Positions 37,613-61,787 of a DNA stretch of 64,000 nt are shown in pieces. The stretch lies in contig JAAOMT010000659.1 of the NCBI GenBank assembly GCA_016748015.1, positions 809,222-873,221 of the forward strand. Direction: 5' to 3'. Position numbers and translations under genes: made by a program. Within the stretch, counting starts at the first letter, position 1. Each line of letters starts with the position of its first letter. The stretch is from Geosiphon pyriformis uo1. Lineage: Eukaryota; Fungi; Glomeromycota. The notes under the pieces were generated by a model. That model saw nothing but the letters and a program-made list of their open reading frames with translations. It was not told the origin of the DNA and made no database searches.

Positions 37613-38232
37613 TTAATATTGAGCTCCGTCAAAATCTAGCTCTTTTAATTCTCCTTTTTGAATTATTTCTTGGACTTCTTTTTCCAGAATTATTTGTGTT
37701 ATTTGTATCTGTAATTCTTTGAATTGGGCATTGGTGATTTTTCCCAATTGATTGCTGGTAACTGTATCCATTGCTTTGTCCAGTAGGATTTCTGGTCAAT
37801 CTTGAAATGCTGTGTGTATTTGGTATATGGCTTGGGTCTGTGTGGATAAGTTGTTCTTTCTCACAAAATGTTCTAATTGTTGTAGTATTCTTGTGTCAAA
37901 TAATCGCTTTGTTTTATTTATATATAGATTCTGGATATTCACGTGTTGTTCCAAGTAAAAATAACAATAGTTTCTTGGAAATTGTTGTATTCACCAATTC
38001 CAAGTTTTTTTAGTCAACTCTTGGTATAGTGACTCTTTTGTTGACTCTTTTATTGCTAATTTTACTTTCGCCATGATTTTGTCAATGGTATTTTCTGTGT
38101 TCTATGTGGTAATGTCTTTCTAGTGTCTTGATATTGGATGGTTTGTTAATTAATTGTAATTTCTATCTTTTGGTGTTGAATCAATTGAAAGAGTTGTTGT
38201 GCTAGTGAGTAGATGTTGTCTGTAATTTCCAT
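37613..38232 (-). pseudogene. ORF3 of element A (unknown protein; carries a short deletion)
   Basis: Homologous to ORF3 in B and C (starts MEITDNI, ends GAQY*). Confidence 0.75.
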
Positions 38233-39658
38233 TTTTCTGATATTTCTTGTCACGTTAGCCATGTCTTTATATACTTTTTTGTTGATTAATTTATGTGTTG
38301 TTGTTGATGATAATGATTGGTTCCAGATCTTGTGAAATTTCTTCTGGTTGGACTAGCATCTTCTGTACTCCTAATTGTGGAATATTACTGGTGGATAGTG
38401 GTGTGATGTTGTAGTATGGTTTCAGTCAATCTCCATGTGCTGTTTTGGTTAAAATTTTGTTATCTAGTCTTAATTTGTAAGCTCTATTCCCTAGAATTTT
38501 TTCTATGTGAAATGGTTTATCCCATTTGGAGTCGAATTTTCCACTCTATTGTTTTTCCGCTTTGGTATGATGTAAGAGTACTTTGTCTCCAATCTTAAAT
38601 TCAACTGGTTTGTTTGGTAGTTGATTATTATGTCTTTTTTTCTGTTTTTCTTGTAACTTTTGTATGTTATCAGCTGCTCTTTTTCATTTGTTTTCCAATG
38701 TTTCTATTAAATCATATGTTTTTCTTAACAATGTCTTTTGAAAATTCTCTTCTGTTATTGATTCAGTTGAATATGTGTTAACCTCTATCTCAACTGGTAA
38801 TGTTGCTGTTTTACCGTATATCAATTTAAATAGTGTTGCTTGTGTGGTGTCTTGTTTCATTGTCCAATAAGCAAATAATACTGATGGTATAAACAAATCT
38901 CATTCATCTTTGTTTTTTTGGCTAAGTTTGGTGATTGCTTCACACAATTTTCTATTAAATCTTTCAACTAAACTGTTTATTTGTGGATGATATAGTAATA
39001 ATAATGGTCTTTTAATTCCGAATCTTTGGCTCAATTCTGCTAGTGTTCTGTTCACAAAGTGAGTTTTCTGGTCTGATAATAATTCTTTTGGACATCCATG
39101 TTGATGTTACAAGTGATTATTTGGGGTGTTGAATCAAATAACAAACCTGTAACTTGATGCTAAAAGTTATTTGTGTTGATGTTATTAATCTGAAGATTTT
39201 GTATCTGAAGGTTTCGGTTTGAGTTCTTTGTGTAATGGACAGAAATTCAATAGTTGTTTTATCTGTAGCTTCTCAGAATTGCAATTCTGTCAATTCTTCT
39301 CTCAGCGTTGTTACAGGTAACAATTTCTGGTGTTGAATTAAACATAAACCCATAATTTGGTGCTCAAAGCTATTCTCATTGTCAATGATCTGAAGGTTTT
39401 GTATCTGAAGGGTTTGGTTGAGTTCTTTGTATAATGGACAGAGATTCAATGGTAATAGTTTCCTCCGTAGCTCCCCGAAACCACAGTTTCATCAATTTCT
39501 TTCTCAGCTTAATGGCTGGTATTCTTCCTGGTAAGCTATCTTTAATCGAGTATTTTACCCTTATTTCTGGGTCTTTTACCAGTCACGTTTATCTTAACGT
39601 TATTACCCGAGTAAAAAAACCAATCCAAAGTTATGAAGAGACATGACCAAAACGTGAC

Positions 39659-39833
39659 ATAACACAGAATAATGTGCAATAACATTGGATAATGCATTAT
39701 AACGTAGAATAATGTGTTATAATGCAGGATAACACAGAATAGTGTGCAATAATGTAGGATAACGTGTTATAATGCAGAATAACACAGAATAACATGTAAT
39801 AATGTCAGATAACGTGTTATAATATAGGATAAC
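39659..39833 (+). repeat. About 17 tandem 10-bp units (ATAA-CG/TG/CA-NNNN) in U3 of LTR D; second copy ~48790-48964
   Basis: ATAACACAGA ATAATGTGCA ATAACATTGG ATAATGCATT ATAACGTAGA ... read directly. Confidence 0.9.
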
Positions 39834-40690
39834 TAGTGATAACATAGAAAAACAAAGCAATAACAGAAACAACAAAGCAATAGCTAGCGATAGTGAGACA
39901 ATTGAAAGCAATCCTGTAAAACCAAAAGAATGTATAAAAGCAAGTAGTTATAGAAGTGAGAAAAGACAGACAGACAGACAGATACGAACCTCTAGACCAA
40001 AATTAAAAATATCCATACTCTTTCATCCTTTATTATCTTCCCTATTTTATCTCCTGAAATAAACCAATTATTAAAAGAAATCAGAATCATGAATTCATGT
40101 TCTCGAACTTTGTAGAATTTACATGAATTAACTCTTGTCTCGTATCTCTGTTCTAGAACAGATGCTTTTAGCATAACTGCTTCGAACCTATTAATGATTT
40201 GGACCAATCGCTCTTGATCACGGCAATTGATGATACTAATTTATTTTTTCTCTCTTTTCTTTTTTTTCTTTTTATTTTTTTTTCTTTTTCTGTCTTATTT
40301 TTGTGGAGTGGCAACATAGTAAAATTGACTGTCTGGGAATAGACTTTGTGATAGCCTGGTAAAAGAGGGAAGCTCCCCTTAAATTTTGGATATTAACATT
40401 ATCTTGTTAGCTTATTAGAAGAGTGAAAAGACAATGCCAGACCCTAACGACTGTGCTTGTTAGCTCGGAGAAGAAAGCTCACATTTATGAAAAATGTTGC
40501 AATTGACAAAAAACAAACTCTGTGCCTTATAACTAAAGAACTCAACGGGTAAAATTTACATCCAGGAATAGACCTTCAAAGACTGATAATCAAGACTAAG
40601 CCAACAAAATTACATGGAAGACGCCTCATCAATAATTAAGAGCACCAAACATTACCATTTCCCATACCCACCAAGTTTACCCATAACATT

Positions 40691-40706
40691 TGGTGCTCTC
40701 TGTGAG
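40691..40706 (+). promoter_or_regulatory. Primer-binding site of D (probably tRNA-Ile(UAU))
   Basis: TGGTGCTCTCTGTGAG begins 2 nt after the LTR end; complementary to a tRNA end of type CTCAC..GGAGCA-CCA. Confidence 0.7.
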
Positions 40707-40750
40707 ATAATAAATCCACAGAGACAGAGCACCCCCAAAAATACATAAAA

Positions 40751-43700
40751 GTGGCGACTATTGGAACAATAAAAAAGGACCACTTCTCATACAGAAAAGC
40801 ACTATTTCAATACTTTCAAAAAGACTTAAGAATACCAGCAGGAACTGCTTATGCAGAAAGTGATTTTTGTAACTATATCAACACAAAAATTGACTGCTTG
40901 TTAGGCCATACAACTGATACAGGAAGACTTGGAGAACAAATCCATCAAAGCTTACTAGGGTACTCAACAGCCACAACTACCCGAGCAATCACTGAAATTC
41001 TGTGCATAATCAATATAGACATTAAATATTACGTGGCACAACAATTCTCTCAAGTACAACAACCAGTGAAATCTGATCCTGAGGAATACAAAAACAAATC
41101 CAACAACCCCATAACTGCTCAAGCCAAGTCCATGGTCAACAAGAAACCAAGGGTTCTCTCTCCAACAACTCCATCATATCATCAGACACCCCAAAGTAGA
41201 ATTGTATTCAACCCACCCCCAGAAACCCAGTCAGAAACACCACAAACTCCTGAAAATCCACACTCTTAGAATCAACACAGTTGAACCAAATCACTAGGAG
41301 AATACGGATTGTTGTTTGGAAATCTTACTTCAGCAGCCGGTCAAACAGAAAGAAACCCATCAACTTGGGAACAGCCACCAGCACAAAACCTAGCAGAATC
41401 AGCATCTCCCCTGATGAAAGAAACAGCTATCTTACAACCTATTGGTTAAAGCAACAAAGGAAAGCAACCAGCATTAGCACCCAGAAAATACTCGAATACA
41501 CAGATACCAATCCCTTTAAACATAACCAGTAACACCCTACCCATTAATCAGATCATGGCTTATTGGGATATTGCTAAATTGGAAAAATTCTCTAGTGAAG
41601 AAGATAATGCATATTTTTGGATCATGGATGCTGAGAAAGCAATTACCACTAACAGTTAGAACAATGACCACACAATTCAGGCACTGCTGTTTTTTCTGAC
41701 CAGAACTGTCAATTCGTGGTACCAGAGCCTGACAGAGAAGTCTACCTCCTTTACTGAATTTAAACTCGCATTTCTGCAATACTTCTGTGACCCCAATACG
41801 TTAATCCGATTGCAGAATCAATTCAGCATAATTAAACAAAAAGATCATGAATCAGTAACTACTTATCTTAGACAATTCAATCAAATTCTGCATTAAATAT
41901 TAGCTATTGAAAGGAACTACTACACCACAGCGCAAGTTCTTAATCAATTCATTAAAAGACTGTGGAGTAGTATTCTAAGATCCATAAGACCCCGCTATTT
42001 GACCAGTTTACAAGACGCCATTATTCTTGCTCGTGATTTTGAGTCTGCAGAACAAGAAGTGAACCATACCCAAGTCATTAATTTAGCCATTAATGGAACC
42101 TCTAACATCAATGCAAAAATAACCCAATTGAGTGAGAAACTAACTCAGAAAATTGAGGGATTCTTAGCCGAAACTACAGGAACTTACCAACCACCCCAAC
42201 GGAGAGAAAATAACAACAACAGCAGATACTCACAGCAACAGAACTGTCAGCAATAGCAACAATCTTGGAGATCTGATCTCCACAACTGTTACTACTGTCA
42301 GAAACCTGGACATATCGCCTGTAACTGCAAAAGAAAAATCATAAACCAAAATCAAGGAAACTCATATCAGCAAAACATGGTATCCCAATATTCCATACCT
42401 CAGAATCAACCGCCCTTATATGCACAACAAGTTCTGTACACTCAACCACCACCCCAGAATTATTATCAACTACCACCAATGACACAAGCAATCCCTTACT
42501 ATCAAACTTCCCCTTACAGCCCATCCAGACTTCGGGCTATAGACTATAATCAGAGATGGAGGAATCCCAACAACAATCAGGTGCAAACCAACAGTGAACT
42601 GTCTCGACCAATCCCTCGTGGTCCTGTCCAATCTCGACCAACACCAACTGAATACCCAAATCAAGCTTCCTATCTCGGTCTTATGGAAGACCAGGATTTT
42701 GATAAATCTACATCTGTGGAAGGGAAGAATATAGAATGAATCTCCCAACCTTCTAAGCAAACAAAAAGCAATATCTCACCAGCCACTATTACCAAAGACA
42801 CTACTCTAGCCGCCATATTTCCTTTTAACATTGATAATTTAAACACCCATAGCCTTTTTAGTGGAACAGCCATCAATCAGGATAAACCAATAATGGTCCT
42901 ATACACTGATGTCAGAGTCGGAGGAATAGACATTAAATTAATCCTGAATAGTAGATCAGCTGATAGCATAATCACGAAGCAGTTCATGGACCAACTAGGT
43001 CACCGAGTAGACCATGCTGCTACCACCCGGATCATTACAGCGGATGGGAACACAAAAACCCCAATAGGAGAAATTGACAACTTCCTCTTCGAGATTAATG
43101 GAATCTAAATCCCTACCAAAGTACTCGTCATGGAAACTACTCAATATCAAGCTCTAGTAGAAAACAACTGGTTGTCAAAAGCCAATGCTACTCTCGACTG
43201 GAACACCCAAGAACTTCAACTCATGTTCAATGGACAGCATACCTGAGTCCCAGCTATGTGTGGACACTTTAAAACCCAATGTACCAAGGAACCCCTTATT
43301 GAATTCGAAGACACATCAATGTCACCAACCATCGAGACCTATCAGGTTTCATGGGTGGATGATTATCAAACTGAACTACTCTCACCACCAACCTGGAAAG
43401 AAAAAAGAAAAGGCAGAGCCAAAAAAGAACCCCAATTGTCATCACTAGGATACGTAACCTCAGACCAAAGAAACTTATTTTACCAACCTCCAAAACTAAT
43501 ATGTGTTGATTGTGGAAAAAAACTATCCACTATGGGTGCATGTATTGAGGACAACAAAGAATGACCCACCACCACCAAATACTATTGCAGGCCTTGTTTA
43601 CTGAAAAGATTTGGATGACCAAAATGACAAGGCAAGTGAGACCACATGCCATGCCTCGCATGTGGCAAAATTCTGCCAGATAAAAGACTTTGAAATGATG

Positions 43701-46525
43701 TGCCTGGCAGAGAAAGAACATGTGATGAGGCTTGTCAATACACCATATTAATCAATGATTGGATACAAAAGAGAACTCCTATCGAGGATGCTTGGAAATG
43801 AGCACTCAACAGACTGGATAGTTATCCACACAATGACCATGAAATCTGGAGAATGGCAAGCACCAAGGCTGAAGGCACCACACCCGAAGAAATACGAGAA
43901 ATCAAGGACAACTCTTGGACGCCCGAATATACTGGACCCAACTACCCCGAAGATGATTTCTTCACAGATGACCCAGACGCATTTCAGAACCAATATCAAG
44001 AATTGGCCCCAACTTGTAAAAAACAGGAGTAAAGGTTGGCCAATTTGAATACCAAACTGTGCAATCACTATTTGATCCCCTGTCACTTCCAGTACTGCAA
44101 TGAATGTGATCTCATGTTCAATTTGTCTCCAAGAATACTGTTTCCAATCACCAAACTACCTGAGCCCGAAGAAGAGATATTGATCACTGAGGACATGTCA
44201 TTCCAAGATCCAACTGAGAATACCAAAACAGAACAGTATCTCACGTATCCCGACCTATCTAAAGAACTAGAGCTAAAATAGTACAGTGACAACGAGGAAA
44301 AAATCTGCCCCGAAAGAGTGCATGAAACCAATGCCAGTTTCGACCTACGATACTCTGAACAATCACTCATTATTATAGCTCCACATGCTTTCGTAAAAAT
44401 AGATCTTAAGATAGCATTAGAAATTCTTGTTAGTACAATGATACAAGTTGTCTCTCAATCTAGTCTAGCCAAGAAAAGAATTGACATAAAAAGAGGAATC
44501 ATCAATGCCGGTTACACAGGAAACATCATCGTAATGCTACAGAACAATTCGGACAGACTCTACAAAATAGAATCACAAGAAAAGATTGCCCAAGCTATCT
44601 TCCTATCCCTAGTTAAAATACCCCAATTAACCCCAGTAACAACCCAAGAAGAGTTAGGCCTCACTGTCCAAAGAATCAATGGGTTTAGATCAAGTGGAAG
44701 AGAAAACGTACCCATTAATTTCACAGAGGAAGACAGTGACCAGGTAGAATTTATCAACACCAACACTGTCATCTCCATTCCCCCATATTGACAATACATC
44801 CTCAAGGTGAATTAAAAGATCCAAGATCAAGCCCTATTATTTAAAGCCAGTCTCGAAATCTGTTCTCTAGCCAATGTTGCTAATCTATACCTACCGGCCA
44901 AAGCCCATAAACACTTCAAAATCTCCATCCACAACTCGACAGAAGATGTCATTGAAATCCCTGAAGGGACCCTCATTGGTTCTATATTTGCAGATATTCA
45001 GAATCCTGAAAAACCCCAATTCATTCCAGATTTTGCACAATTATTCTTATTCTGTGATATTACCTCACAAGTATAGAATTTGCCAAAAGAAAGTTACTTG
45101 TTCACACCAGAAGAGATCAATAAATTGAATTTAGGAAATTTAAGTATCCTACAACAAATGCAACTCAAAGTCTTTCTAAATCAGTATGCCAATGTCTTTG
45201 CTAGCAAAAATGAGTTCGGATGCACCGACATTGTGAAGCATCAGATTGATACAGAAGACGCTCAACCAATTAAGCAATGAGCTTATCGTGTACTCCCATC
45301 TGGCAATAACCTAATTAAGCAAGAAGTGCAACGGATGCTTAATAACGATCTAATCAAAGAATTTTTAAACTCTTGGTCCTTGTCAGTAGTTTTGGTTACC
45401 AAGAAAAATGGAAAAGTGCAATTCTGCGTAGATTATCAAAAACTAAATAGTGTCATGTGAGGAGATAGTTATTCCACTCCCCTCATCCAGGAAATTCTGG
45501 ACAATCTAGGGAAAAAGAAATGGTTTTCATTATTAGATTTAGCAAGTGGTTACTGGCAAGTTGAAATGGACTCCAAAGACAAAAGAAAAACAGCATTTAC
45601 CACTCGAGACGGAAACTTCGAGTTTAACGTAATGTCTTTTGGACTTTGTAATACTCCTGCCATGTTTCAATGCCTGATGGATGTAGTATACAAAAAAATC
45701 CTTTGGAAATCAGTAGTAGTCTACCTAGACAACACAAATGTGTTCTCCAAAACATTCAAAGACCATCTGCTCCATCTGCAACAAGTCTTCAAACACTTTC
45801 ATAGTGCCAGATTGAAACTCAATCCTGAGAAGTGCTTCTTTGGAAAAACTGAGTTAAAATTCCTAGGACATGTAATTGGCAAGGATGGAGTTAAACCCAA
45901 TTCAGATAAAGTACAAAAAGTCAAGGATTTTCCAGCCCCAATCAACCTCAGAGAATTACGAGGATTTCTAGAATTGGCAGGATATTATCATCGATTTGTT
46001 AAAGGTTTCTTGAACATCACAAAACCACTCCATCAATTGTTGTCCAAATACATACCGTACTTGTAGAAGGAAGATCAACAGAAAGTATTCGACTATCTCA
46101 AGCAGCAATTGATCACATCCCCAATCCTGATTTACTCAGATTTCATTAAACGGTTCATTGTTGCTACGGACACTTCAAAAAATGCTCTAGAAGCAGTCTT
46201 ATTACAGATAGGACTGGACAATAGAGAACACCTAGTTGTCTATGCTAGTCGCAGCACTAGCCCAGCAGAAAAGAATTACAGCACAACAGATCTGAAATGT
46301 CTCACCATTTATTGGGCCGTACAGACTTGGAAACATTACCTCAGTTAACCATTTAACTTATATACCAACCACAAAGAACTTATTTGGTTACTCAACAATC
46401 CACAACTAGAAGAAAAATATGCAAGATGAAGTACTTATCTGCAACAATTCCCACTCAAAGTTCATTACAAGGAAGGATCCAAGAACACCAATGTCGACAG
46501 TTTGTCGAGGATGCCACAAACCTAA
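40751..46525 (+). pseudogene. D ORF1: Gag (CCHC)-protease-Cys-rich insert-dUTPase-RT-RNase H in a single frame
   Basis: All ORF-track pieces from 40751 to 46109 share one frame; CYYCQKPGHIACNC, KLILNSRSA (DSG), dUTPase, LDLASGYWQ, YLDNT, TDTS...DSLSR; terminal TAA 46523-46525. Confidence 0.9.
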
Positions 46526-46535
46526 TCCCAGATTC

Positions 46536-47903
46536 ATGGACACATTCACTTATCAACAACTATATCAGTACCTATCGACACTATGTTTCAAGGAAATATT
46601 ATCTCAACAGGAACAGAGTACCATATGAAAACAAGCCCAAAATTATTTTATTTAAGACAACCAACTATATCGACGAGAATGCTGAAACCACTCCAACCCA
46701 CAACAACTAATTAAGGACAGTGAAAGAAAAACTATACTATATAGCATGCACTCAGATCCAACTGCAGGACACTTTAATAAAGACACTACCCTTGAAAGAA
46801 CACTAAACTTATACTATTGGCCAACAATATACAAAGACATTTTCAAATACATGCTCAATTGTGACGCATGCCAACAAAGAAGAGGAGCAAGATCAACAGA
46901 ACCACTTCGACCCATTCCAGTTGAAAATCTATTTGATAGAATTGAAATTAATTTGGTTGGATTTCTTTCAATTACATCCCAAGGAAATCACTATATTGCT
47001 GTAGCCGTAGACTATCTTACAAAATGGCCAGAAGCCAAAGCAATCCAAGTGGCCAATGCCAAAACAGTTGCCAAATTTGTGCATCAAGACCTAATTTGCC
47101 AACATGAATGTCCAAAAAAATTATTATCTGATCAGAAAACACACTTCATTAATAATACGTTGACTGAACTAAGCCAACAGTTTGGAATAAAGAGATCCTT
47201 ATCGTTATCATACCACTTATAAACAAATGGATTGGTAGAACAATTTAACAGAACACTGTGTGAAGCACTAGCAAAAATAAGTCATAAAAACAGACAAAAA
47301 TGGGACTTATTCATACCTTCTGTACTCTTTGCATACCGAACATTGAAACAAAATATGACTCAGTTCACACCGTTCGAACTAGTCTATGGAAGAAAAGCTA
47401 CATTACCGATTGAACGAGTGATACTGTTATATCCAACCGAAACAATCAATGAAGAGAATTTTGAGGCTACCTTACACCAAAGAACATACCAGCTAATGGA
47501 AATGTTGGAAAACAATCGAAGAACAGCAGCTGACAATATTAGTCACACTCAAGAATAACAAAAAGAAAGACATGATAAACACCTATTAGAACATCCAATG
47601 GAATTCAAGATTGGAGACCAAGTACTATTACATCGTACAAAAGCTGAGAAACAGTGGAGTGGAAAGTTCGATCCAAAGTGAGACAATCCATTCTATATAC
47701 ACGAAGCATTAGGAAATGGAGCTTACAAATTATAATTGGAAGACAGGATTTTAAAGAAAGTAGTACATGGAAATTGGTTAAAAATTTATCATGTAAAACA
47801 GGAATCATTGTCATCAGTACCTTAACTAGGAACACAAATTTCATTAATCAGACCAGAAGATATACCACAAGATCTGAAACCAATCATCGTCATCGAAACA
47901 TAG
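46536..47903 (+). pseudogene. D ORF2: stand-alone DDE integrase (HHCC, DDE, GPY/F; no chromodomain)
   Basis: Own ATG in a different frame from pol; MHSDPTAGHF...CDACQ; VDYLTKWPEA; NGLVEQFNRTL. Confidence 0.9.
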
Positions 47904-47983
47904 ACAACGGACAGCAAATTAAATTGGGGAATTCAAATATATATAGCATTCAAAAAGCAGCAAGAAACGATAGAAATTTCAAC

Positions 47984-48717
47984 ATGGACCTTTCAGATCA
48001 AATTTTAAAATTATCTAAACAATTATTTGAAACAATTCAAAAATTGACATCTCAAATAGAAATAACAATTAATAAAAAAGAGATACAGTACAAAGATAAG
48101 AGCAGGAGAGAGGAGGATGAAAGTTCAATTAGAACTAAATGTTCTCTTTTCTACCCACCACCCAAAAGGCAATGTTGGAGGAAAAATTGCCTTTGGGTGA
48201 GGAATGGAAAAGAAAGAGGCAAAGAACAAAAAAAAGATTACAAAAGAAGATACTTGATCCCCGAGCTCGAAGAAATAAAAGAAGCTTTAGCTCATGGAAC
48301 CGAACTCCCGAAACAGGGGAGTGGACACCTGACAACGCCCAGAAATAGAAAAAAAGACTTCCTCCAGCTTATTGGTTCTACGAAATTGGAGAACAGCTTG
48401 ACTTGAAAACACCATACGAAGACCTCAGCCAGAAAACGTTCAACAAAGAAACAATACAACAAGTAGAAAAATTCATAGGAAAAAACAACCTAATTCTACA
48501 TTACAAAGCAGCATACTGACTATATGCTGCCTTCCAACATTGCCCAAACATACTATTGAATGGATCTATGAAAACCATAACAGTTAACAACATAGGACAA
48601 ATAACCAATTAACAGTTCAAAGACCTACAAGAGACAATACTTGAGGCAACAATCGAACATTACACAAACAAAGCCATGATAACAGATACATACAGTTTCA
48701 TAAGAGCTCAATTTTAA
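47984..48717 (+). pseudogene. D ORF3: unknown helical protein in env position (one frameshift ~48300)
   Basis: MDLSDQILKLSKQLF... and YWFYEIG...KNNL...AAY*LYAAFQ...ITN*QF...RAQF* align to ORF3 of A, B and C. Confidence 0.75.
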
Positions 48718-50404
48718 AAAGAGAGAGATAATGTTATCCAAGTAGAAAAACTGATCCAAAGTTATAAAGAGATGTGACCAAAATGTGACATTACATAGAA
48801 TAACACACAATAACATTGGATAATGCGTTATAACGTAGGATAACGTGTTATAAAGCAGGATAATACAGAATAGTGTGCAATAACATAGGATAACATATTA
48901 TAATGCAGGATAACACAGAATAATATGTAATAATGTCAGATAATGTGTTATAATATAGGATAACTAGTGATAATATAGAAAAACAAAGCAATAACAGAAA
49001 CAACAAAGCAATAGCTAGCAATAGCAAGACAATTGAAAGCAATCCTGTAAAACCAAAAGAATGTATAAAAGCAAGTAGTTGTAAAAGTGAGAAAAAACAG
49101 ACAGACAGACAGATACGAACCTCTAGACCAGAATTAAAAATATCCATACTCCTTCATCCTTTATTATCTTCTCTATTTTATCTCCTGAAATAAACCAATT
49201 ATTAAAAGAAATCAGAATCATGAATTTATGTTCTCGAACTTTGTAGAATTTACATGAATTAACCTTTGTCTCGTACCTCTATTCTAGAACAGATGCTCTT
49301 AGCATAACTGTCTCGAACCTATTAACGATTTGGACCAATCGCTCTTGATTACGGCAATTGACGATACTAATTTATCTTTTTTCTCTTTTCTTTTTTTTCT
49401 TTTTATTTTATTTTTTTTTTCTGTCTTATTTTTGTGAAGTGGCAACATAGTAAAATCAACTGTCTGAAAATAGACTTTGTGATAGCCTGGTAAAAGAGAG
49501 AAGCTTCCCCTAAATTTTGGATATTAACATTATCTTGTTAGCTTACCAAAAGGGCAAAAAGACAACACCAGATCCTAATGACTGTGCTCGTTAGCTTGAA
49601 GAAGAAAGCTCACATTTATGAAAAACATTGCAATTGATGAAAGACAAACTCTGTGCCTTATAACCAAAGAACTTAACGGGTAAAATTCACATCCAGGAAT
49701 AGACCTTCAGAGACTGATAATCAAGACTAAGCCAACAGAATTATACGGAAAATGCCTCATTAATAATTAAGAGCACCAAACGTTACTATTTCCCATACCC
49801 ACCAAGTTTACCCATAACAATGTCAGTGTCCCGCATGTTAATCCTCAATAGAATTAGTAAACAACAACAAAATTAAAGCAAGAAAATAAAGAAAGAAAGA
49901 AAATAAAGAAAAAAAAGAAATAAGCCAAGGCAATTTGCAAGTTAGTATCCTGTCAATAGCCATGATCAAGAGCTATTGTTCCAGTGTGGTTAAGTATCAA
50001 TTACTATTAACATAAAGTGTTAATAATAAAGAGTAGATTGAGATATGAAATAATTATTTATTTGATAATTGTGATTTGGAGAGTGGCTTAAATTAAATCT
50101 AAACTGAGAGGTTTGTCTTTTCAGCTTCTAATCCTGCTGCTATATATACATAATTGAGATTTCTCAATTCCTTGATTTTTTATGACAGGAATCCTGGAAT
50201 TCCTGGAATTCTGCAATTTTTTTGAGAGGAATCCTGAAATTCTGGAATCCTACAATTCCTTGTTGGGGAATTCTGAAATTCTTGGAATCCTGCAATTCTT
50301 AAGAGGAATCCTGGAATTCCACATTTACTATGCCTACTTCTGATTAGCTAATAATCATGCTAATATATTTCCTATATTTCTATGAGTAACATTATTCCCT
50401 CCTT

Positions 50405-51034
50405 TTAATATTGAGCTCTGTCAAAATCCAACTCATTTAATTCCCCCTCTTGAAGTATTTCCTGAATTTTGTTTTTGAGGATTACTTGTGTTATTTGGGT
50501 CTGTAATTCTTCAAATTGAGCATTGGTGATCTTTCTCAATTGATTACTGGTAATCATATCTATTGTTTTGTTGATTAATATTTCTGGTCTATCTTAAAAT
50601 GCTGTTTGTATTCAGTATATAGCTCAGGCCTGTGTGGACAAGTTGTTCTTTCTCACAAAATGTTCTAATTGTTGTAGTATTCTTTTGTCAAATAATCGCT
50701 TTGTTTTATTCGTATATAGATTCTGGATATTTACGTGTTGTCCCAAGTAAAAATAACAATAGTTTCATGGAAATTGTTATATCCACCAATTCCAAGTTTT
50801 TTTAGTCAACTCTTGATATAGTGACTCTTTTGTCAACTCTCTTATTGCTAATTTTACTTTCACAATAATTTTGTCCATAGTAGTTTTAGTTTTCTTCTGT
50901 GTTCTGAGTTGTAATGTCTTTCTAGTATTTTGATATCAAATGGTTTGTTGATTGATTATAATCTCCATTTCCTGGTGTTGGATCAATTGAAAGAGTTGTT
51001 GTACTAGTGAGTAAATGTTGTCTGTAATTTCCAT
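50405..51034 (-). pseudogene. C ORF3 (210 codons, no frameshift)
   Basis: MEITDNIYSLVQQLFQLIQ...YCYFYLGQH...KNNLSTQA*AIY*IQTAF...RAQY*. Confidence 0.8.
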
Positions 51035-51088
51035 TTTTCTGATATTTCCTGTCACATCTATCATGTCTTTATATATTCTTTTGATGGC

Positions 51089-52471
51089 TTAATTTGACAT
51101 GTTATTGTCAATAATAATAATTGGTTTCAGATCTCGTGGAATCTGATCTGGTTGGACTAGTATTCTCTGTACTCCTAATTGTGGAATATTACTGGTAGAT
51201 GGTGGTATAGTGTTGTGATATGGTTTTAGTTGATCTCCATGTGCTGCTTTGGTTAAGATTTTGTTGTTCAATCTTAATTTGTAAGTTCCATTCCCTAGAA
51301 TTTCTTCTATGTAAAATAGTTCATTCCATTTGGGGTCAAATTTTCTACTCCATTGTTTTTCCGCTTTAGTACAATGTAAAAGTACTTTGTCTCCAATCTT
51401 GAATTCAACTGGTTTGTCTGATAGTTGGTTATCATACCTTTCTTTTTGTTTCTCTTGTGCCTTTTTAATGTTATCAGCTGTTCTTCGTTGCTTGTTTTCT
51501 AGAGTTTTCATCAAATTATATGTTCTTCTTAGTAACGTTTCCTGAAAATTGTCTACAGTTATTGGTTCTGTTGGATAAGTGTTGACTTCTATCTCGACTG
51601 GTAGTGTTGCTGTTCTACCATATACTAATTCAAATGATGTTGTTTGTGTAGTGTCTTGCTTTATTGTCTGATAAGCAAATAGTATTGATGGTATTAACAA
51701 ATCCCATTTGTCTTGGTTTTTTTGGCTGAGTTTTGCTATTGCTTCACACAATGTTCTATTAAATCTTTCAACTAATCCATTGGTTTGTGGATAATATGGT
51801 GATGATAGTGGTCTCTTAATTCCGAATCTTTGGCTTAGTTCTGCTAATGTTCTATTCACAAAATAGGTTCTTTGGTCTGATAATAGTTCTTTTGGACATC
51901 CATGTCGACAAATCAGATTTTGATGAATGAATTCGGCAACGGATTCTGCATCCGCTCTTTGAATTGCTTTTGCCTGTGGTCATTTAGTGAGATAGTCCAT
52001 GGCTACTGCTATATATCTGTTTCCTCTGCTGGTGATTGTTAATGGTCTGACTAAATCAATTCCAATACAGTCAAATGACTGTTCCACTTTGATTGGTCTT
52101 AATGGTTTACTGGGTTTTGTTTCTCCTCTTCACTGACAAGCATCACAATTTTGAACATATTGGATGATGTCTGGATACATTGATGGCCAATAGTATCTCT
52201 TTTTGGTTCTTTTCATGGTTGCTTCTTTGTGAAAATATCCTGCTGTTGGATTTGAGTGTATGTTGAATAATATGGTCTCTTTTTTTGGCTCTGTAATTAC
52301 TCTGGTTGGTTGCTTTAGATCTCTTCTATTTTTCCGATAAAGTATATTTTGGTGAGTGAAAAAATATTTTGATTGTTGTTTGATACTCTTTTGTTCCATT
52401 TGAGATAAATTCTCCTTAAACTATTAAGTGTTTATATATTGTAGCAGTTGTTGATATTTTTGTATGTTCAT
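51089..52471 (-). pseudogene. C ORF2: stand-alone integrase
   Basis: ATG 52471-52469 (MNIQKYQQLLQY) lies 30 nt after the pol stop; HHCC-like, DDE and GPY/F-like regions. Confidence 0.88.
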
Positions 52472-52501
52472 TTTTTGTTATATTTTTGGGTTGAAATGTT
52501 C

Positions 52502-55500
52502 TTAGATTTGTCTTATTCATAACAAACTGTCAGCATTTCTGTTGTCTTTTCCCTTTTTATAATGTATCATATAATTATATGGTGTGAGTGCCATTTTCCA
52601 TCTTGACTGTCTTCCATCTTCAAATTCTTGTTTTTGAAGTGATGTTAATTCTTTGTGATTTGTGTATACTTTAAACTTCTGGCTCAAGTATTTTTTCTAT
52701 TTCATAACTGCCCAGTATATTGCTAAGTGTTCTTGTTTTGGTGTTCCATAGTTCTTTTCGGCTGGTGTTAAACCTCTGCTGGCATATGCTATTGGATGTT
52801 CTCTGCCATCTGGTTCTCTCTGAGATAGTACTGCTCCCAATGCTTGGCCAGATGCATCGGTGGTGATGATGAATGGTTTGCTGTGATCTGGATAGATCAG
52901 TACTGGAGCTTGAATGAGCTTTCTTCTCAGAATATCAAAAGCTTCTTGTTGACTTTCCATTTATTCATATTTTGTATTCTTGGTTTGCAGTTGGTTGAGT
53001 GGCTGTGCTATCTTGGAAAAGTTCTTGATAAAATGTTGATAGTAGCTGGCAAATCCCAAGAATGATTTCAGTTCTGTCATATTGGTTGGTACTAGAAAGT
53101 TCTTTACTATCTTTATTTTCTCTGGATCTGTTTTGATGCTGTTTTTGCTGACTATGTGTCTCAAGAATTTTAATTCTATCTTGCCGAAGAAGCACTTTGT
53201 TGCATTCAACTTTAGTCCAGCTTTTCTTAGTCTTTCGAACATTTATTGAAAATGATGAAGATGATCATTAAACGTTTTTGAAAATATGTTGGTATTGTCC
53301 AAGTAGACAACTACTGATTTCCACAATAAGCCAGTATAAACAATTTCCATTAGTTGTTGGAAAGTGGCTGGAGCATTGGTTAAGCCAAATAGCATTACTT
53401 CAAATTCGAAATTTTTTTCTCTAGTGGTGAATGCTGTCTTCTCTTTGTCAGCTGAATTCATGGCTACTTGCCAATAACCACTATCCAAGTCTAATGTTGA
53501 GAACCATTTGTTTCTACTGAAAGCATCAAATAATTTTTGTATCTGTAGAGTTGGGTAGCTGTCTCCATGAGTTACACCATTTAGTTTCCTGTAGTCTACA
53601 CAAAATTGGATCTTTCCATTCTTCTTATGGACAAGTACTACTGATGATGACCATGGGCTCATTAATGGCTGAATTAACCCATTGTTCAACATTTGGTTGA
53701 TCTCTTGACAGATGATTTCATTGCTGGCTAGTGGCACTCTATATGCTCACTGTTTGATTAGCATTGCATCTCCAGTTTTGATTTGATGTTGGATGATGTC
53801 AGTTCTGCCAAATTCATTTTTGCTGGCAAAGATATCATTGAAATTGTTGAGTAACATCTTGAGCTACATATGTTGTAGTGGGTCTAGATTTCCCATGTTT
53901 ATTTGTTCTAATTGTTTTGATTGGAGCAAATAACATTCATCTCATCCATAGATTGTTTGTGATGTGATGTCGACATATCCACAAAGTTGTGAAAAATCTG
54001 GAATGGGGTTTGGTAGTTGATCCTCTATTTCAGTATTTAAGTATCCAATAATGATTCTAGCTGGTATTACTATGACATTTCCTGTGTTGTTGTAGATGAG
54101 GATTTTGATGTGACTGTAATCTTTGGCTGGTATATGGAGATTGATAAATCCAATCTCTCCTGATTTGTAAAGGGTTGGTTCTGTTTCAAAAATCTGATGC
54201 TGTTCTTTTTTCTTCTTTTCTATTGCTAGCATATATTGGTTATATGGTAGAATGGAAATAGCTTGACTGATTGAGATAATTTCTCTTTGGTTAACAATTT
54301 TTTTTTCTGCCATATTAACTGGTAGATCTATTCTACCCATTGACCCAAATCCTTGTATCCCTCTTGCTGTTATTCCTAACTCTTTCCTCTTTCCCACCTA
54401 TACTAACTGAGCTATTCTAACCAGAGACAGGAATATTGCTTGTGCTATCTTTTCATTGGGCTCCATTATATAGGCCTTTTCTGAGTCATTTTGTAGCATA
54501 GCAATGATATTTCCTACATATTCTGCATTAATTATTCCTCCTCTTATATTAATCTCTCTTTTTGCTAAACTACTCCTAAATGCTAATTGAACCATAGTTG
54601 TTGCTGGAATTTCTAGTGCTACTTTCAGATCAATGCAGGTGTATGAATGTGATTCCAATTTGATGGCCTCTTTTCCTGGATATCTCAGATTAAACCCAGC
54701 ATCAGTATCATGTGCACATTCAGGCCTGATACCCTCATCATTATCACTGAACCATTTTAGTTTCAATTCTCTGGTAAGATCAGGGATTGCGATATATTGT
54801 TCATATTTTGTATCGGAGTTTGAATCTGAGTTGGAATTAGTATCGTTGTTGTTGTCATATTAAACGGAGCTAGAACCATTGTTTTCATTGTTGTCATTGT
54901 CGGAGTTTGAATTAGGATTGAAAATCGATTCCAATTCTGATGTGCAGCTGCTGATTGGCTCTTCTTCTTCGGGGATCGTGTAGATCATACATGGTAGTGG
55001 ATTGTAAATGAGATCACAATCGTCACAATAGTCAAAGTCACTGGGAATTAAACAATAGCGACACAGTCTTGTATTCAACTGTGCTAGCCATTGTTTTTGC
55101 TTTTCTCTAGTGGGTGCCAAGTTTTAATAGTGTTCATAGAACTCTTCTGGTTCTAGGAAATTTATGACTGGCTCTGCATCCCAGTCAAGCTCGATGGGTT
55201 CTGGTGGGTTGTTTTTAATTACTCTGATTTCTTCTGGCGATGCGCCTTCAATTTTGGCACTTGCCATCCACCATAATTCATCGTCATTGTGTGGATAACT
55301 GTCTAATCTCTGTACAGCTCTTTTCCAAGCGGCTGCTATCAGTGTTCCTTTTCATACCCAGTCACTGATAAGGATTGTGTATTAACACGATACATCGCAC
55401 GTTTTTCTATGTCCAGGAATGTCGTTCCACATTTTTTTATCAAGAAGGGTCTCCCCACAAGCTAAGCATGGTTGGTTGTTCCATTTTCTTACACATTTTG

Positions 55501-58500
55501 GTCTTCCAAAGTGTTCAAGGATGCATGAGCGGCAATAAAACTTAGTTGTTATTAAATATTCCTCATTATTACTACAGCATGCACTGTTATAAGTGATTAC
55601 TTTTGCTGTTGAATTAATTAACAAATCTATAACTTGGTGCTCAAAAGCTACTTTTGTGGATAATGTTCTGTAAGTGTTGTATCTGAAGGTTTTGATGGAT
55701 CTGAAGATTTTGTTGTGGAGTCCTTTGTATAATAGACAGAGATTCAATAGTGTCAATAGTAGATGTATCTTTTCAAGAATTTTCCCAATTTCTTTCTTAG
55801 TGTGGTGGCTGGATTTAGTCTAATAGTCATGCCCTTCTGGTAAGCTATCTGATAATATATAAAATCCTACCCTTATTTCTGGGTCTTTTACCAGGCTATC
55901 CTTGACGTCAATAACTCAGTGCTTTAATCCTTAATCAATTAGTATACAACAACAAAATCAAAGAAAGAAAGAAAAATAAAATAAAGAAAATAAAATAAAG
56001 AGAAATAGAGAAAATAAGCCAAGGCAATTTGGTACATTAGTATCTTGTCAATAGTCATGATCAAGAGCTATTGTTCTAGCATGGTTAAGTATCAATTACT
56101 ATCAACATTTTATGTTGATAGTAAAGAGTAGGTGAGATATAGAATAATTATTTATTTGATGTTTGGAATTGGAATGTTGCTTAGATTAAATCTAAACAGA
56201 GAGGTCTGTCTTTTTAGCTTCTAATCCTACTGCTATATATACATAATTGAGATTTCTCAATTTCTCAATTCCTCAATTCTTTGTAACAGGAATTCTGAAA
56301 TTCCTGGAATTCTGCGATTCCTCATCGGAAAATCCTGAAATTTCTAGAATTCTATAATTTCTCTGAGAGGAATTCTGGAATTCCACATTTACTATGTCTA
56401 CCTTTGATTGGCTAATATCTACTGACTAATAATACTATGTTTCCTATATTCTATGGGTAACAGCGCCCATTGACAACAACTTCTTGCCACAATTGATGTA
56501 GACAAGCTTAGGTCGACAATAGTTAGATCATTGTAGTATAGTGTAGGTATTATATGTGATGGTGGTTTGGGTGGTCTCTTCTTCTCTTTCTTTCCCTTTT
56601 CTTTTATCTTCTTTGTTTTCTTTCCATTCCCAGCTGGAAGTTGGTTTGCTCTTGTCATTGTCGGTCTATGTCAGATTATTAGTTTCCCAGGTAAGTTCTT
56701 CTTTCTGTTTTCCTTTCTTGTCATCATCTCAAATGAGTATTGGCAGTAGTTTGTTGTGGTCGACGTCAGTCCATGACATTTGGTACACTTCCCAGGTAGG
56801 CTTTGGCTTCTTTTCCTTGAAGTCAATTAGTGGTGCCATGGTGTTGGTTGCCTTGAAGTGGCCACATGTGGCTGGTACTCATGTGTGTTGTCCGTTCTGA
56901 CTGAGCTGGAGTTTTTGTGTGGTCCAGTTGAGCACAGCATTGGTTTTAACTAACCAATCATTACTAACTAGTGCTTAGTACTAAGTTGCTTCCATCACCA
57001 AGACCTTAATGGGGATAATGATACCATTGACTTCAATTAAGAAGTCATCGATTTCGCCAATAGGCATTTTTGTGGTGCCATCTGCAGTAATAATTCTAGT
57101 GCTGGCAGCCCAGTCAACTCGGTGATCTAATTGATTCATGAGTTGCTTGGTGATGATGCTGCCTGCTGAACTGCTATTAAAGATGAGTTTAATAAAGTGT
57201 CTATCTACTTTTACATTAGTGTACATTGCTGTAATGGGTTTTTCTTTGAGAGCGGCTCCACTGAATAATGGTAATTGGAATGGTTCCTCAAGTTTAAAAG
57301 GGAAAATAGCTGCTAAGGATTCATTGTTGGTGACAGTGGCTGGAGGTATGTTGCTGGGAAGTGTTGCTTGTTGGTTGGTTTCTGAAGTATTGAAAGTAGT
57401 GTCTTCTGGAGTAATCAGAAGACTTAAATAGTTCTGAAAATTCGGGTTTTGGGTGGCACTGGTACCCGAATTCCAAGAACACGATCCTGATGGTGAGTTA
57501 GAAGAACTGGGGATCAGTTGGTGGACAACCATCGCCGATCTCCAGTTTTGTGTGATTCTAAGTCTGGAGTGGCCTGATGTCATATTAACTGAATTTTGGG
57601 GCAATGTCTGAATGGATTGGAGTTGATAAATTACTTGAGGCCACAACTGATAAATGACTGGTAGTTGTGGTTGATAAATTTTTGGTGGCTGCAGCTGATA
57701 AATTGGAGGTTGATATACTGGTGGTTGATAGATTGGCTGCTGCATCATGGGCAGATAAGTGGTTTGATATTGGTCTTGATTTAGGTAGTGATTCTGAGTT
57801 TGAAATCTGTAATCGGGGTTTTGATATTGGTTTCCTGATCTTGGATTGTTGCTATAAAATTTACAATCTGCTCTTATGTGTTCTTGTTTATCACAATTGT
57901 GGCAAACATGCGTTTTTGGCTGCCATAACTGATTAGGCACTGCTGATGATAATGATGAACACGACTGATTTTGGAAATGATTCGTGTTTCCTGGATTATT
58001 ACATTGTTGTGGTGGTTGATAAATGGCGCAATTGTTAGCTAAGTATTCCTCTAATTTCTGATTAATTGAATTACTAAATTGTTTCAATTTGGAATCCAAT
58101 TCAGATGACCCATTCATTACTAGGTTTACTGCTTGAATGTGGTTGGCTTTTAACTCAGCTGCTTCAAAATCTCTGGCATGTATAACTGTGGTAGGGAGGT
58201 CAACTGGATGCATTGGGCATACTCGCTGAAAAAGATTACTGTGCAAACCTCTAATAAATTGGTTCAAGATCTGTGGTGCTGTAAAATAGTCATCTTGGAT
58301 TGCCTGAATTTGGCACAGATTTCTATGAAAGCATTCCAAGTAAGTAGTAACTGCTTCTGTGTCTCCTTGTTTGATGGTGGTAAAAGTACTTGCCAAGTGG
58401 TTGATGCTGTTGTTATTACTAAAATACCTCAAAAATTCTAACTTGAAGGCATTAAAGTTTTGAGATTTCTGGGCTAGACTGTGATACCAGGAGTCTGCCG

Positions 58501-59620
58501 TGTTTTTGAGAAAATAGGGGATGACTTGCATAGTTCTGGTGTCATCCCAGTTATTGGCGGTAATTGCTTTGGTGACATTGTTGATCTAAGCTTGAGCATC
58601 GTCCTTTTCACCAGTAAAATGGTCAAGTTTTGTGATTGGTGTATAAGCCATTGAATCTAAGTTGGGTTGTTGTGGTGGCTGTTGAAGCAGTTATTGTTGT
58701 ACTGGTTGTTGGGGTGGTGAGATGAGTTGTTAAAGTAATCTTTGAAGAAGATTCAGTGGCTGTTTGATGACAATTACCGGAGATAAGTTTTGCTGATTAA
58801 TTAATTCGAAGTTTGGATTGTTCTGCCTTTGATGATTTAAAGTTTTGATTTCTGAATTTTTCAGATTTAGATTTTGCTGAGCTTGAAGATTCAGGGTTTC
58901 AACTTCCGGGTTTTCAGTGATTGGGTTTTGATAAGTAAATTCTTGATCTTCTGATTTTTCTTCCTCTTCTTCAGATAGTTTCCATGGGGTAGTGGTTCCA
59001 AAGTTCAGTTGAGGCAGCAGTGATCGAATTCCTGATGGGATTGGTGATCGTGATTTAAATTTTTCAAAATACTTGCCATATGGTCCTAATAGATCTGTTT
59101 TTCTTTGTTTACTTTAGAATGAGAATTGTCCAAATGTTGATATTGCATTTGATGTGGACACACTTGCTGATGTTATATTGATGGCGCTTCCCAGTGTGTA
59201 GTAATAGGATGGGGTGGTTGGTGATTCAACTCTTGTTTTCTTCCAAGTGGGTGGTTGTATCTTTTTGGGTGTTACCGCTGGTATTTGTAGTTTTTCTTTT
59301 CCTTTACTGGTATAAGTAATTAGATATCTTTGTTAGGTGTGATGTTTAATTTCTTTGTTGATCTCAGTAATGATAGAGGCAAAATTGTGATTTGTTGGCA
59401 GATTGGTATTTTGAATTAATTCTCTGTAGAAAGTTTCCCTGGCTGATTTAGTATTCACTAGTGTTCCTAATAAAGAGGAAATTTTTTCATTGATGTAGAA
59501 ATTAAAGACTGATTCGGCAGATATATGATTGTGACTTAATCCCAAGTGTTGACAATAGTGTTAAAATAGGGATTTCGCGAATCCTAAATGGTTTGCTCCT
59601 ATGTTTTCTGATTCTGCCAC
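52502..59620 (-). pseudogene. C ORF1: Gag-PR-Cys-rich insert-dUTPase-RT-RH (interrupted by solo LTR E)
   Basis: Single frame; CHNCDKQEHIRADC, KLIFNSSSAG, DAGFNLRYP...RSSLAK...GIQGFGSMG, YLDNT, TDASGQALGAVL. Confidence 0.9.
55585..56462 (-). mobile_element. Solo LTR E (878 bp), related to the A/B/C LTRs
   Basis: TGTTA...TAACA termini; flanks GCAC (55581-55584) and GCGC (56463-56466); splits the codons MGA|C of C pol. Confidence 0.9.
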
Positions 59621-59664
59621 TTTTGGTTTGTGTTTGTTGGTGCTGGTTCTTTGTAAAATTATAT

Positions 59665-59680: not shown

Positions 59681-61157
59681 AATGTTACAGGTGACAATTT
59701 CTGGTGTTGAATTAAACACAAACCTGTAACTTGGTGCTCAAAGCAATGATCTGAAGGTTTTGTATCTGAAGAGTTTGGTTAAGTTCTTTGTATAATGGAC
59801 AGAGATTCAATAGTAATAGTTTCCTCCGTAGCTTCCCGAAACCGCAGTTTTGTCAATTTCTTTCTTAGCTTGATGGCCAGTATTCCTCCTGGTAAGCTAT
59901 CCTCAATCAAGTATTCTACTCTTATTTCTGGGTCTTTTACCAGTCATGTTTATCTTGACATCAGTGCCCCACGCATTAATCCTCAATAGAGTTAGTAAAC
60001 AACAACAAAATCAAAGCAAGAAAATAAAGAAAAAAAAAAATAAAGAAAAAAAAAAAATAAACCAAGGCGATTTGCAAGTTAGTATCTTGTTAATAGTCAT
60101 GATCAAGAGCTATTGTTCTAGCATGGTTAAGTATCAATTACTATTAACATAAAGTGTTGATAATGGAGAGTGGATTGAGATATAAAATAATTATTTATTT
60201 GATGATTGTGATTTGGAGAATGGCTTAAATTAAATCTAAACTGAGAGGTCTGTCTTTTCAGCTTCTAATCCTGCTGCTATATATACATAATTGAGATTCC
60301 TTAATTCCTCGATTCTTTACAACAAGAATCCTGGAATTTTTAGAATCCTGCAATTTCTTTGAGAAGAATTCTGGAATTCTGGAATTCTGCAATTCCTGAG
60401 AGAAATCCTGGAATTCCACATTTACTATGCCTACTTCTGATTGGCTAATAATCATGCTAATATATTTCTTATATTTCTATGAGTAACAGCGTAATGGCCA
60501 GCAATCCTCTGGTAAGTATTCCATATCTTCTGTACATGTTCTATCCTCTTGCAGGGGTCTTTTACCAGACAATCCTTGACATCAGTAATCTAGTACTTTA
60601 TTTAACCAATTAGTGCACAACAATAAAATCAAAATAAAATAAAATAAAGAAAAAAATAAAAGAAAATCATGAATAAGCCAAGGCGATTTTGCAAATCACT
60701 ATTCCATCAATAGCCGTGATCAAGAGCTATTGTTCTAGTGTGTTTAAGTATCAATTATTATCAACATGGAGTGTTGATAGTGGAATTAGGTTTGAGATAC
60801 CAAATAGTTATTTATTGTATTTGGAAGGTTTTCTAGATAAAATCTAAACTTAGAGATCTGTTTTTTTAGTTTTTAATCCTACTGCTATATATTCATAATT
60901 AAGATTCCTCAATTCTTCAATTCTTCACAACAGGAATCCTGGGATTCCTGAAATTCTGCAATTCCTTTGAGAGGAATTCTGGAATTCTGGAATTCTAGAA
61001 TCCTGCAATTTCTTGTGAGAATCCTGTAATTTTTGAAATCTGCAATTCCTGAGAAAAATCTTGGAATTCTACATTTTACTATGTCTATTTCTGATTGGTT
61101 AATAACTATGCTAATATATATTCCCTATATTTTTATAAGTAACATTATTCTCTTCTT

Positions 61158-61787
61158 TTAATATTGAGCTCCATCGAAATTTAACTCTGTTAATTCCCCT
61201 TCTTGAAGTATTTCTTGAATTTCATTTTCAAGAATTACTTGTGTTATTTGAGTCTGTAATTCTTTAAATTGAGCATTGGTGATCTTTCTTAATTGATTAC
61301 TGGTAACTGTATCCATTGCTTTGTCCAGTAGGATTTCTGGTCAATCTTGAAATGCTGTGTGTATTCGGTATATGGCTTGGGCCTGTGTGGATAAGTTGTT
61401 CTTTCCCACAAAATGTTCTAATTGTTGTAGTATTTTTGTGTCAAATAATCACTTTGTTTTATCTATATATAAATTTTGGATATTCACATGTTGTCCCAAG
61501 TAAAAATAACAATAGTTTCTTGGAAATTGTTGTATTCACCAATTCCAAGTTTTTTTAGTCAACTCTTGGTATAGTGACTCTTTTGTCGACTCTTTTATTG
61601 CTAATTTTACTTTCACCATGATTTTGTCAATGGTATTTTCTGTTTTTTTCTGTGTTTTATGTGGTGATGTCTTTCTAGTGTCTTAATATCAGATGGTTTG
61701 TTGATTAATTGTAATTTCCATCTCTTGGTATTGAATCAATTGAAAAAGTTGTTGTGCTAGTGAGTGGATGTTGTCTGTAATTTCCAT
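61158..61787 (-). pseudogene. B ORF3 (210 codons, no frameshift)
   Basis: Same length as C ORF3; in the C-terminal half compared, its stops fall at different codons. Confidence 0.8.

Follow-up and report, generated by a model that had tools for sequence, protein, structure and literature searches.

The right half of a 64,000-nt stretch of the Geosiphon pyriformis genome (contig JAAOMT010000659.1; hereafter the window) is filled by a nest of retrotransposons of the long terminal repeat (LTR) type. Element C lies on the minus strand and runs from its 5' LTR (60488-59683) to a 3' LTR that is split by element D. C is itself inserted in the 3' LTR of element B, and the LTR end of B adjoins the truncated element A. 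All four carry an open reading frame, here called ORF3, between the integrase (IN) and the polypurine tract (PPT):

50405..51034, minus strand: ORF3 of C, 209 codons plus TAA, six internal stops
61158..61787, minus strand: ORF3 of B, five stops
37613..38232, minus strand: ORF3 of A, 10-bp deletion, frame shifted near codon 48
47984..48717, plus strand: ORF3 of D, about 244 codons, one frameshift near 48310, two stops
50395..50406, minus strand: PPT of C, overlapping the ORF3 stop

A first-pass annotation of this DNA had described the reading frame in all four elements, protein motifs common to C and D, and an overlap of the stop codon with the PPT. All three are found as claimed, the last two bases of the stop being the first purines of the PPT. 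The ORF3 of D represents a second family, about 30% identical to that of A, B, and C, and the N-terminal 36 codons are also homologous between C and D.

It had further been proposed that the stops interrupting ORF3 fall, in the C-terminal half compared, at different codons in B and C and are explained by transitions. Most of them do lie at different codons, but B and C share a TGA at codon 33, and A and B share TGA at codons 84 and 149. Transitions account for nearly all of the LTR decay, but codon 90 of C differs from A and B by a transversion. At the C stops 50779, 50767, and 50596, public contigs of run X1 have another letter in 98, 74, and 79% of the depth, respectively; these figures come from the best 40 of 118 rows and cover three of C's six stop positions. 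An intact natural version of ORF3 exists as P0006, a protein of 209 amino acids that is 82% identical to C.

Selection on ORF3

No ratio of non-synonymous to synonymous change (dN/dS) near 1, the value which had been named as speaking against a conserved protein, was obtained with the Nei-Gojobori method. The B-C ORF3 pair gave 0.19, the core of D about 0.25-0.28 when compared with A, B, and C, and the integrases of C and D 0.13. Since transitions inflate the synonymous counts, the comparisons were also set against a neutral null in which each observed change was moved to a random site with the same three-base context. The relative omega of ORF3 was then 0.57-0.76, with P<0.05 in six of seven comparisons, which share copies and are not independent. 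The integrase gave 0.47-0.62 in three of four pairs. As controls, the LTR pair gave 0.95-1.32 and off-frame readings 1.35-1.57; one antisense frame reached 0.69 (P 0.06), as expected given the coinciding third positions. ORF3 was constrained about as strongly as the integrase during the activity of the elements.

Homologues in Geosiphon and in Metagenomes

In homologue searches the best 120 of 204 and the best 120 of 188 matches were all gene models of G. pyriformis. When 1.84 billion representatives were searched with a profile, 124 matched at E<=0.001; the ten that were looked up comprise six Geosiphon and four metagenome proteins, and a search seeded with these four found three further homologues. 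Nine ORF3 representatives are 14-36% identical in pairs, except for one pair at 66%. They have in common a helix and hairpin at the N-terminus, followed by a linker that varies and a core with the pattern Y..IG..L ... G.TN......A.RLY..F......LL. The alignment of P0288 with P0006 spans 201 columns (E 6e-16).

The contig of P0288 (L001) encodes reverse transcriptase (RT) and RNase H (RH), then an integrase 52% identical to that of the window, and then the ORF3 homologue. There is no stop at the PPT here; the reading frame runs through it into the 3' LTR (L001 3117-3148). The ORF3 C-termini of P0286 and of a third Geosiphon family indicate the same read-through. Of the 345 proteins retrieved, 24 are gene models joined to an integrase tail, and five of these come from the third Geosiphon family, where ORF3 therefore occupies the corresponding position. 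Gene models annotated as "hypothetical" in Geosiphon, several hundred of them, are explained by this family as parts of elements.

No free-standing host ORF3 gene was recognised, the genomic context having been read for one protein outside the window. Viral contigs, phages, and plasmids held no relatives, and 20 prokaryote genomes gave two weak, unrelated matches. Searches with ORF3 proteins of Pfam, PHROGs, and PDB sequences gave nothing significant. The family phrog_23683, of unknown function, matched 14 of 57 members (best E 1.4e-4), all from one family. A cluster atlas gave no usable match for P0006; for P0288 the top cluster consists of 98 mostly Mucoromycota proteins (score 0.94), a lead only, with recognition below the mark.

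Protein Structure

The maximum hydropathy over 19 residues is 0.27-1.29 in all eight proteins examined, which by this measure, the one on which the membrane and signal-peptide test rested, leaves no membrane segment. No hydrophobic leader was seen, and no Pfam family, Env included, was found for P0001, P0006, or P0288. A model of P0288 built from 57 sequences (predicted local distance difference test score, pLDDT, 81; predicted template modelling score, pTM, 0.67) has a helix at residues 7-21 and strands at 25-29 and 34-38, forming a small alpha-beta-beta module, then a basic, disordered linker and a core made up of helices. The model of P0006 (pLDDT 53) gave generic helix matches only. The N-terminal module was modelled and searched as part of the full-length protein. 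Selection, intact homologues, the same place in an independent element, the lack of a membrane segment, and the helical model uphold the earlier view that ORF3 is a conserved accessory gene and not env. A confident match to a structural retroelement domain, which would have told against this view, was not found in Pfam, PDB, Foldseek, or fold searches. ORF3 thus stands as a protein family for which neither Pfam nor PDB nor the fold comparisons gave a confident match.

Among the top 50 of 48,161 chains compared with the P0288 model are Spo0J (Z 4.5, root mean square deviation (rmsd) 5.0, 91 residues aligned), sigma-F (Z 3.8, rmsd 2.4, 57 aligned), KorB (Z 3.6, rmsd 4.3, 92 aligned), and ParB (Z 3.3, rmsd 3.1, 59 aligned). 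The Pfam family DUF1016_N (PF17761, the N-terminal domain of YhcG) matches four of 57 members at E 0.015-0.12, the best with 15.8 bits against a cut-off of 32.8. The ORF3 and DUF1016_N profiles are in register over 63 columns, and with context scoring two of 150 column shuffles reach this match. DUF1016_N in turn matches the ParB helix-turn-helix profile at 72-80%, using a ParB set from which one YhcG sequence and three doubtful rows had been dropped. The Pfam HTH_ParB model also retrieved a YhcG N-terminal domain in L132 (G006), just below the cut-off. DUF1016_N and ParB-KorB proteins share with ORF3 a similar order of helices and the in-register Y..IG ... N....A.RLY..F, with borderline statistics, and unlike them ORF3 has neither a nuclease nor a ParB partner domain. 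The likeness of the modelled core to a ParB/DUF1016_N-type helix-turn-helix is borderline, a lead and not an assignment. In 11 of 20 proteins examined the linker carries a basic..PY motif, the pattern of a PY-type nuclear localization signal. The 14 conserved columns of ORF3 contain no catalytic motif.

A Separate Integrase Gene

The genes upstream of ORF3 are arranged as follows (PR, protease).

51089..52471, minus strand: integrase of C, a second ORF with its own ATG; H2C2, rve, and SH3-like domains
52472..52504, minus strand: RNase H stop (52504-52502) and 30-nt non-coding spacer before the integrase ATG of C
52502..59623, minus strand: ORF1 of C, gag-PR-Cys-rich-dUTPase-RT-RH, decayed, with a solo LTR inside at 55585-56462
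46536..47903, plus strand: integrase of D, an ORF of its own in a frame other than that of ORF1, 10 nt past the RH stop at 46523-46525
40706..46525, plus strand: ORF1 of D, one frame of 1940 codons with 26 decay stops, gag-PR-Cys-rich-dUTPase-RT-RH
About 63275, minus strand: RH stop of B; the integrase start is decayed

The elements are a Ty3/gypsy LTR retrotransposon family, with the gene order gag-PR-RT-RH-IN, TG..CA LTRs, primer binding site (PBS), PPT, and 4-bp target duplications. In Ty3/gypsy elements the integrase is usually cut from the same Pol polyprotein as RT-RH. This is not the case here; the layout is a variant with a fixed stop and an own ATG for the integrase in C, D, and L001. 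In B, C, D, and L001 the RNase H domain is directly followed by the stop of ORF1, and the integrase ATG comes 30, 10, and 24 nt past the RH stop in C, D, and L001 (L001 junction 772-801), respectively. Among 2423 contigs aligned to the RH-IN junction of C, neither the stop nor the ATG shows a variant of at least 5%, while 38 of the other positions in the 201 do, and length variants occur in the spacer. The element thus has three genes: gag-pol without integrase, integrase, and ORF3. That ORF3 is the third reading frame because the integrase is a separate second one had been overlooked in the first-pass annotation, as had the TATA box upstream of ORF3 described below.

Two other explanations of the layout were rejected. 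Read-through of the stop into the integrase is excluded by the frame difference in D and the variable length of the spacer. ORF3 as a broken integrase tail is likewise excluded, with an integrase stop in all five elements and a spacer that cannot be aligned. The integrase ends past its SH3-like domain, with no chromodomain match. Summed contig depth rises several-fold at the RH-IN junction, which may reflect sequence shared across subfamilies.

A Candidate Internal Promoter

A TATA box lies in the spacer between integrase and ORF3, and a CCAAT core further upstream.

51068..51075, minus strand: TATA box TATATAAA of C, in the IN-ORF3 spacer, 41 nt before the ORF3 ATG
51120..51124, minus strand: CCAAT core of C, in the integrase tail, degenerate
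61828-61821, minus strand: TATA box of B; CCAAT at 61875-61871
38273-38266, minus strand: TATA box of A; CCAAT at 38320-38316
47938..47945, plus strand: TATA box of D, 46 nt before the ORF3 ATG; CCAAT at 47880-47884

The motif TATAWAWR is found upstream of the ORF3 ATG at -41 in A, B, and C, at -46 in D, and at -126 in L001, thus in three lineages. The spacer copy is the only sense-strand TATAWAWR in the 8041-nt interior of D (40690-48730), and also the only one in the 3116 nt of L001; C, B, and A hold totals of 4, 3, and 4. Dinucleotide shuffling gave P values of 0.066, 0.044, and 0.327 for the spacer TATA in the three lineages, with a post hoc product of about 0.001. In three of the four window copies (A, B, and D) the last integrase codons contain a full CCAAT box, 47-58 nt upstream of the TATA box. 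No TATA box precedes the integrase in the elements examined. The simplest reading of these motifs is likely a short ORF3 mRNA that would start from an internal TATA promoter and end in the 3' LTR.

Each family also has its own repeat array in the U3 part of the LTR.

50175-50320: U3 array of C, GGAATTCC/TTCCAGAA-like
39689-39833 and 48830-48964: U3 arrays of D, GGATAAC/ATAACGTGTTAT-like
L001 3234-3301: U3 array of L001, TTCTTAATT

Family-specific repeated motifs in non-coding DNA, as associated with VANC- and Tas-type proteins, are thus present, though such arrays are not specific, being common in LTRs.

Possible Functions of ORF3

The reading that we favour, tentatively and at somewhat less than an even chance, is that ORF3 is an accessory nuclear nucleic-acid-binding protein, a transactivator or anti-silencer, made from the internal promoter. 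The spacer TATA box would drive a short subgenomic ORF3 mRNA ending in the 3' LTR, the basic linker would mediate import of the protein into the nucleus, and the helix with the invariant N...A.RLY..F motif would recognise DNA. As targets it would have the repeat arrays that are specific to each family and lie between the CCAAT and TATA boxes of the LTRs, and binding there would activate the element or shield it from silencing. The host genome is CpG depleted and decays by transitions only (CpG 1.0% in this region, observed/expected 0.32), and silencing pressure is therefore plausible.

ORF3 would then act like Tas of foamy viruses or VANC of Arabidopsis, while belonging to neither family. Tas, a transactivator, is expressed from an internal promoter close to the 3' end and binds both the LTR and that promoter, and the likeness to ORF3 is one of layout; the foamy viruses are vertebrate retroviruses with an env gene. 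VANC of the VANDAL elements is a fast-evolving accessory protein encoded by an element with family-specific tandem repeats, features shared with the ORF3 elements (PMC5735166). VANDALs are, however, plant DNA transposons, and VANC and ORF3 are not homologous.

Several results weigh against a nuclear regulator of this kind. U3 repeats are common in LTRs, and those found here resemble host sites (TTCnnGAA, GATAA). The TATA box of L001 is unremarkable when taken alone (P 0.33) and lacks the CCAAT spacing. With respect to selection, the A-B integrase control showed none (relative omega 0.96), and for the ORF3 core of C against D it was not significant (P 0.068). None of the fold matches reaches Z 5, and unrelated designed and membrane helical proteins rank equally; Foldseek searches of PDB and viral libraries gave no match at E<=0.001, and a second-look alignment yielded no clear one either. 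The four members with a DUF1016_N match are close relatives and not independent. Without context scoring, 9 of 100 shuffles reach the DUF1016_N match, and the hhalign probability is 1-4%. Direct profile tests against DUF3102 (7 of 100 shuffles) and the ParB helix-turn-helix (0.2-1%) were not significant, and a YhcG gene went unrecognised by the ORF3 profile in 20 genomes carrying one. Finally, the basic..PY motif is missing in C's own family (none of four) and in P0346 and P0348. The part of the earlier interpretation that saw an accessory gene stands, but an anti-silencing, DNA-binding, or targeting role is conjectural, the helix-turn-helix likeness being borderline.

Because the elements combine an internal TATA box with a separate integrase, a translational helper also has to be considered. 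In this case ORF3 would act at the RNA level like TAV of the caulimoviruses, or like Rev or CERV, making ribosomes restart on the separate integrase past ORF1 or exporting or protecting the genomic RNA. This is unlikely, although a good deal fits it. A stop followed by a spacer of 10-30 nt sets the integrase apart in C, D, and L001 (as in B, where the start has decayed), no TATA box precedes it, the stop and ATG of the junction are invariant at 5% among the 2423 contigs while the spacer length varies, and a split integrase occurs together with ORF3 in all four elements where both regions are readable. In cauliflower mosaic virus (CaMV) the TATA box for TAV lies in a spacer of 106 bp behind RT, and it was TAV that allowed the ORFs to be split (PMC5902531). 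The layout of the ORF3 elements equals this; as with ORF VI, which encodes TAV/P6, the last ORF lies past RT, with a TATA box in a short spacer and split ORFs that need restart. However, P0006 and P0288 have no Pfam family that would link them to TAV, which is not among the best 25 of 48 weak families found for these two proteins either. TAV is also about twice as long as ORF3, and caulimoviruses have no integrase. The co-occurrence of split integrase and ORF3 is seen within one lineage and does not represent independent events, and the integrase could be made by unaided restart or by splicing (a CTAAT..CAG precedes its ATG in D, but not in C or L001).

That a fungal LTR lineage re-invented the caulimovirus solution, with a free integrase and a TATA-driven last gene whose product, from a new protein family, restarts ribosomes on a polycistronic RNA, is rather improbable. 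A review from 2018 was aware of no such activator outside Caulimoviridae (PMC5902531). The free-integrase layout in any case poses the question of how an ORF behind one of 1,940 codons is translated.

Less probable again is a partner of the integrase or particle, which would carry the pre-integration complex into the nuclei of the coenocytic hypha or steer insertion in place of the absent chromodomain. Consistent with such a partner are the integrase without a chromodomain match past its SH3-like domain, the basic linker with a PY motif in most families, and the CG-centred 4-bp duplication at all three readable insertions in a region with 1.0% CpG. A preference for a short palindromic target is, however, usually set by the integrase itself, and an own promoter suits a regulator better than a stoichiometric particle component. 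Another accessory role, such as suppression of RNA interference, restriction of competing elements, or tuning of host stress signalling, is given the same low probability. Its fast divergence (14-36% identity between families versus 52% for the integrase) would fit a protein in conflict, and no known fold was found, but positive evidence favours none of these roles and the conserved columns hold no catalytic motif. An Env protein, a small fusogen, or a non-functional captured fragment, for which only the env-like position and the broken state of all window copies speak, is largely refuted by hydropathy of at most 1.29 in all eight proteins, the absence of a leader and of an Env family match, the selection signal, the intact homologues, and the same position in a distant element.

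Relation to Known Accessory Genes

Extra ORFs between pol and the 3' LTR (aORF-3S, env-like) are a known kind of gene (PMC7264820). Plant sense aORFs and gene23 of Grande lie, like ORF3, between pol and the 3' LTR and are conserved in most copies. In maize Grande, gene23 is driven by a promoter of its own and its product is nuclear, but it is antisense, unlike ORF3. The plant sense aORFs often have membrane segments and are spliced, while ORF3 is soluble, fungal, unrelated in sequence, and accompanied by a separate integrase (PMC7264820). CERV of the Caenorhabditis elegans element Cer1 is, like ORF3, a non-Env accessory protein of a gypsy-type element, but is made from a spliced mRNA and exports RNA (PMC10309623). 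Drosophila sORF2 is another non-Env gypsy-type accessory protein, a short membrane fusogen, whereas ORF3 has no membrane segment (bioRxiv 2025.03.14.642691). Among the papers listed by searches of the open literature, none reports the ORF3 protein, a fungal gypsy element whose integrase is separate, or the structure of a Geosiphon element.

Little has been described of the accessory genes that fungal LTR elements carry. LTR sequence makes up 41.2% of the G. pyriformis genome (PMC11952901), and ORF3 may help explain how such elements multiply under methylation-type decay. If ORF3 is a regulator, it would be an undescribed counterpart of the viral transactivators, and a fungal sequence-specific anti-silencer or restart factor would be a useful tool.

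Other Features of the Nest

The LTRs and target duplications of the nest are the following.

59683..60488, minus strand: 5' LTR of C, sharing 91% identity with its 3' counterpart, differences nearly all transitions; followed by the PBS
49820..50391, minus strand: first part of the 3' LTR of C, the remainder at 39309-39596, split by the insertion of D
39601..40688, plus strand: 5' LTR of D; 3' LTR at 48732-49819, the two 92% identical
60489-60492/39305-39308: target duplication, ACGC
39597-39600/49820-49823: target duplication, ACGT/ATGT
56463-56466/55581-55584: target duplication, GCGC/GTGC

Transitions make up 87 of 90 differences between the LTRs of D and 69 of 70 between those of C, which is the decay pattern following insertion. 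All three insertions with both flanks readable have a 4-bp target duplication centred on CG, and a CpG-centred target preference is likely. The PBS, TGGTGCTC(T/C)CTGTGAG at 40689-40706 (plus strand) and 59682-59665 (minus strand), presumably fits the elongator and not the initiator tRNA-Met.

Parts of ORF1 also deserve mention. A dUTPase between PR and RT occurs in some fungal gypsy elements (PMC2864245). Between protease and dUTPase there is a Cys-rich stretch (43403-44248, plus strand; 55382-55819, minus strand) with only a weak LIM match (E 0.048), possibly a zinc-binding reader of chromatin or RNA. About 150 conserved residues between dUTPase and RT (44651-45190, plus strand; 53942-54397, minus strand), 39% identical between C and D and without a Pfam match, are perhaps a decayed second dUTPase-like fold. 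An extension of about 300 codons precedes the gag capsid domain (40706-41608, plus strand; 58730-59623, minus strand); it has no Pfam match, and its first 150 residues are conserved between C and D (32%).

A decayed, very AT-rich gag-like fragment lies immediately past the 3' LTR of A (36089-36582, minus strand). A separate decayed retroelement, probably non-LTR, is found at 23591-30244 (plus strand), with RT at 27545-28273 and a weak RNase H match at 29231-30244; some ORF3 gene models seem to have pieces of this element fused into them. The host genes at 877-22248 encode RabGAP-TBC, homoserine dehydrogenase, and PDZ-containing protease-like (PDZ_1) proteins of fungal type and a PHP-domain protein.
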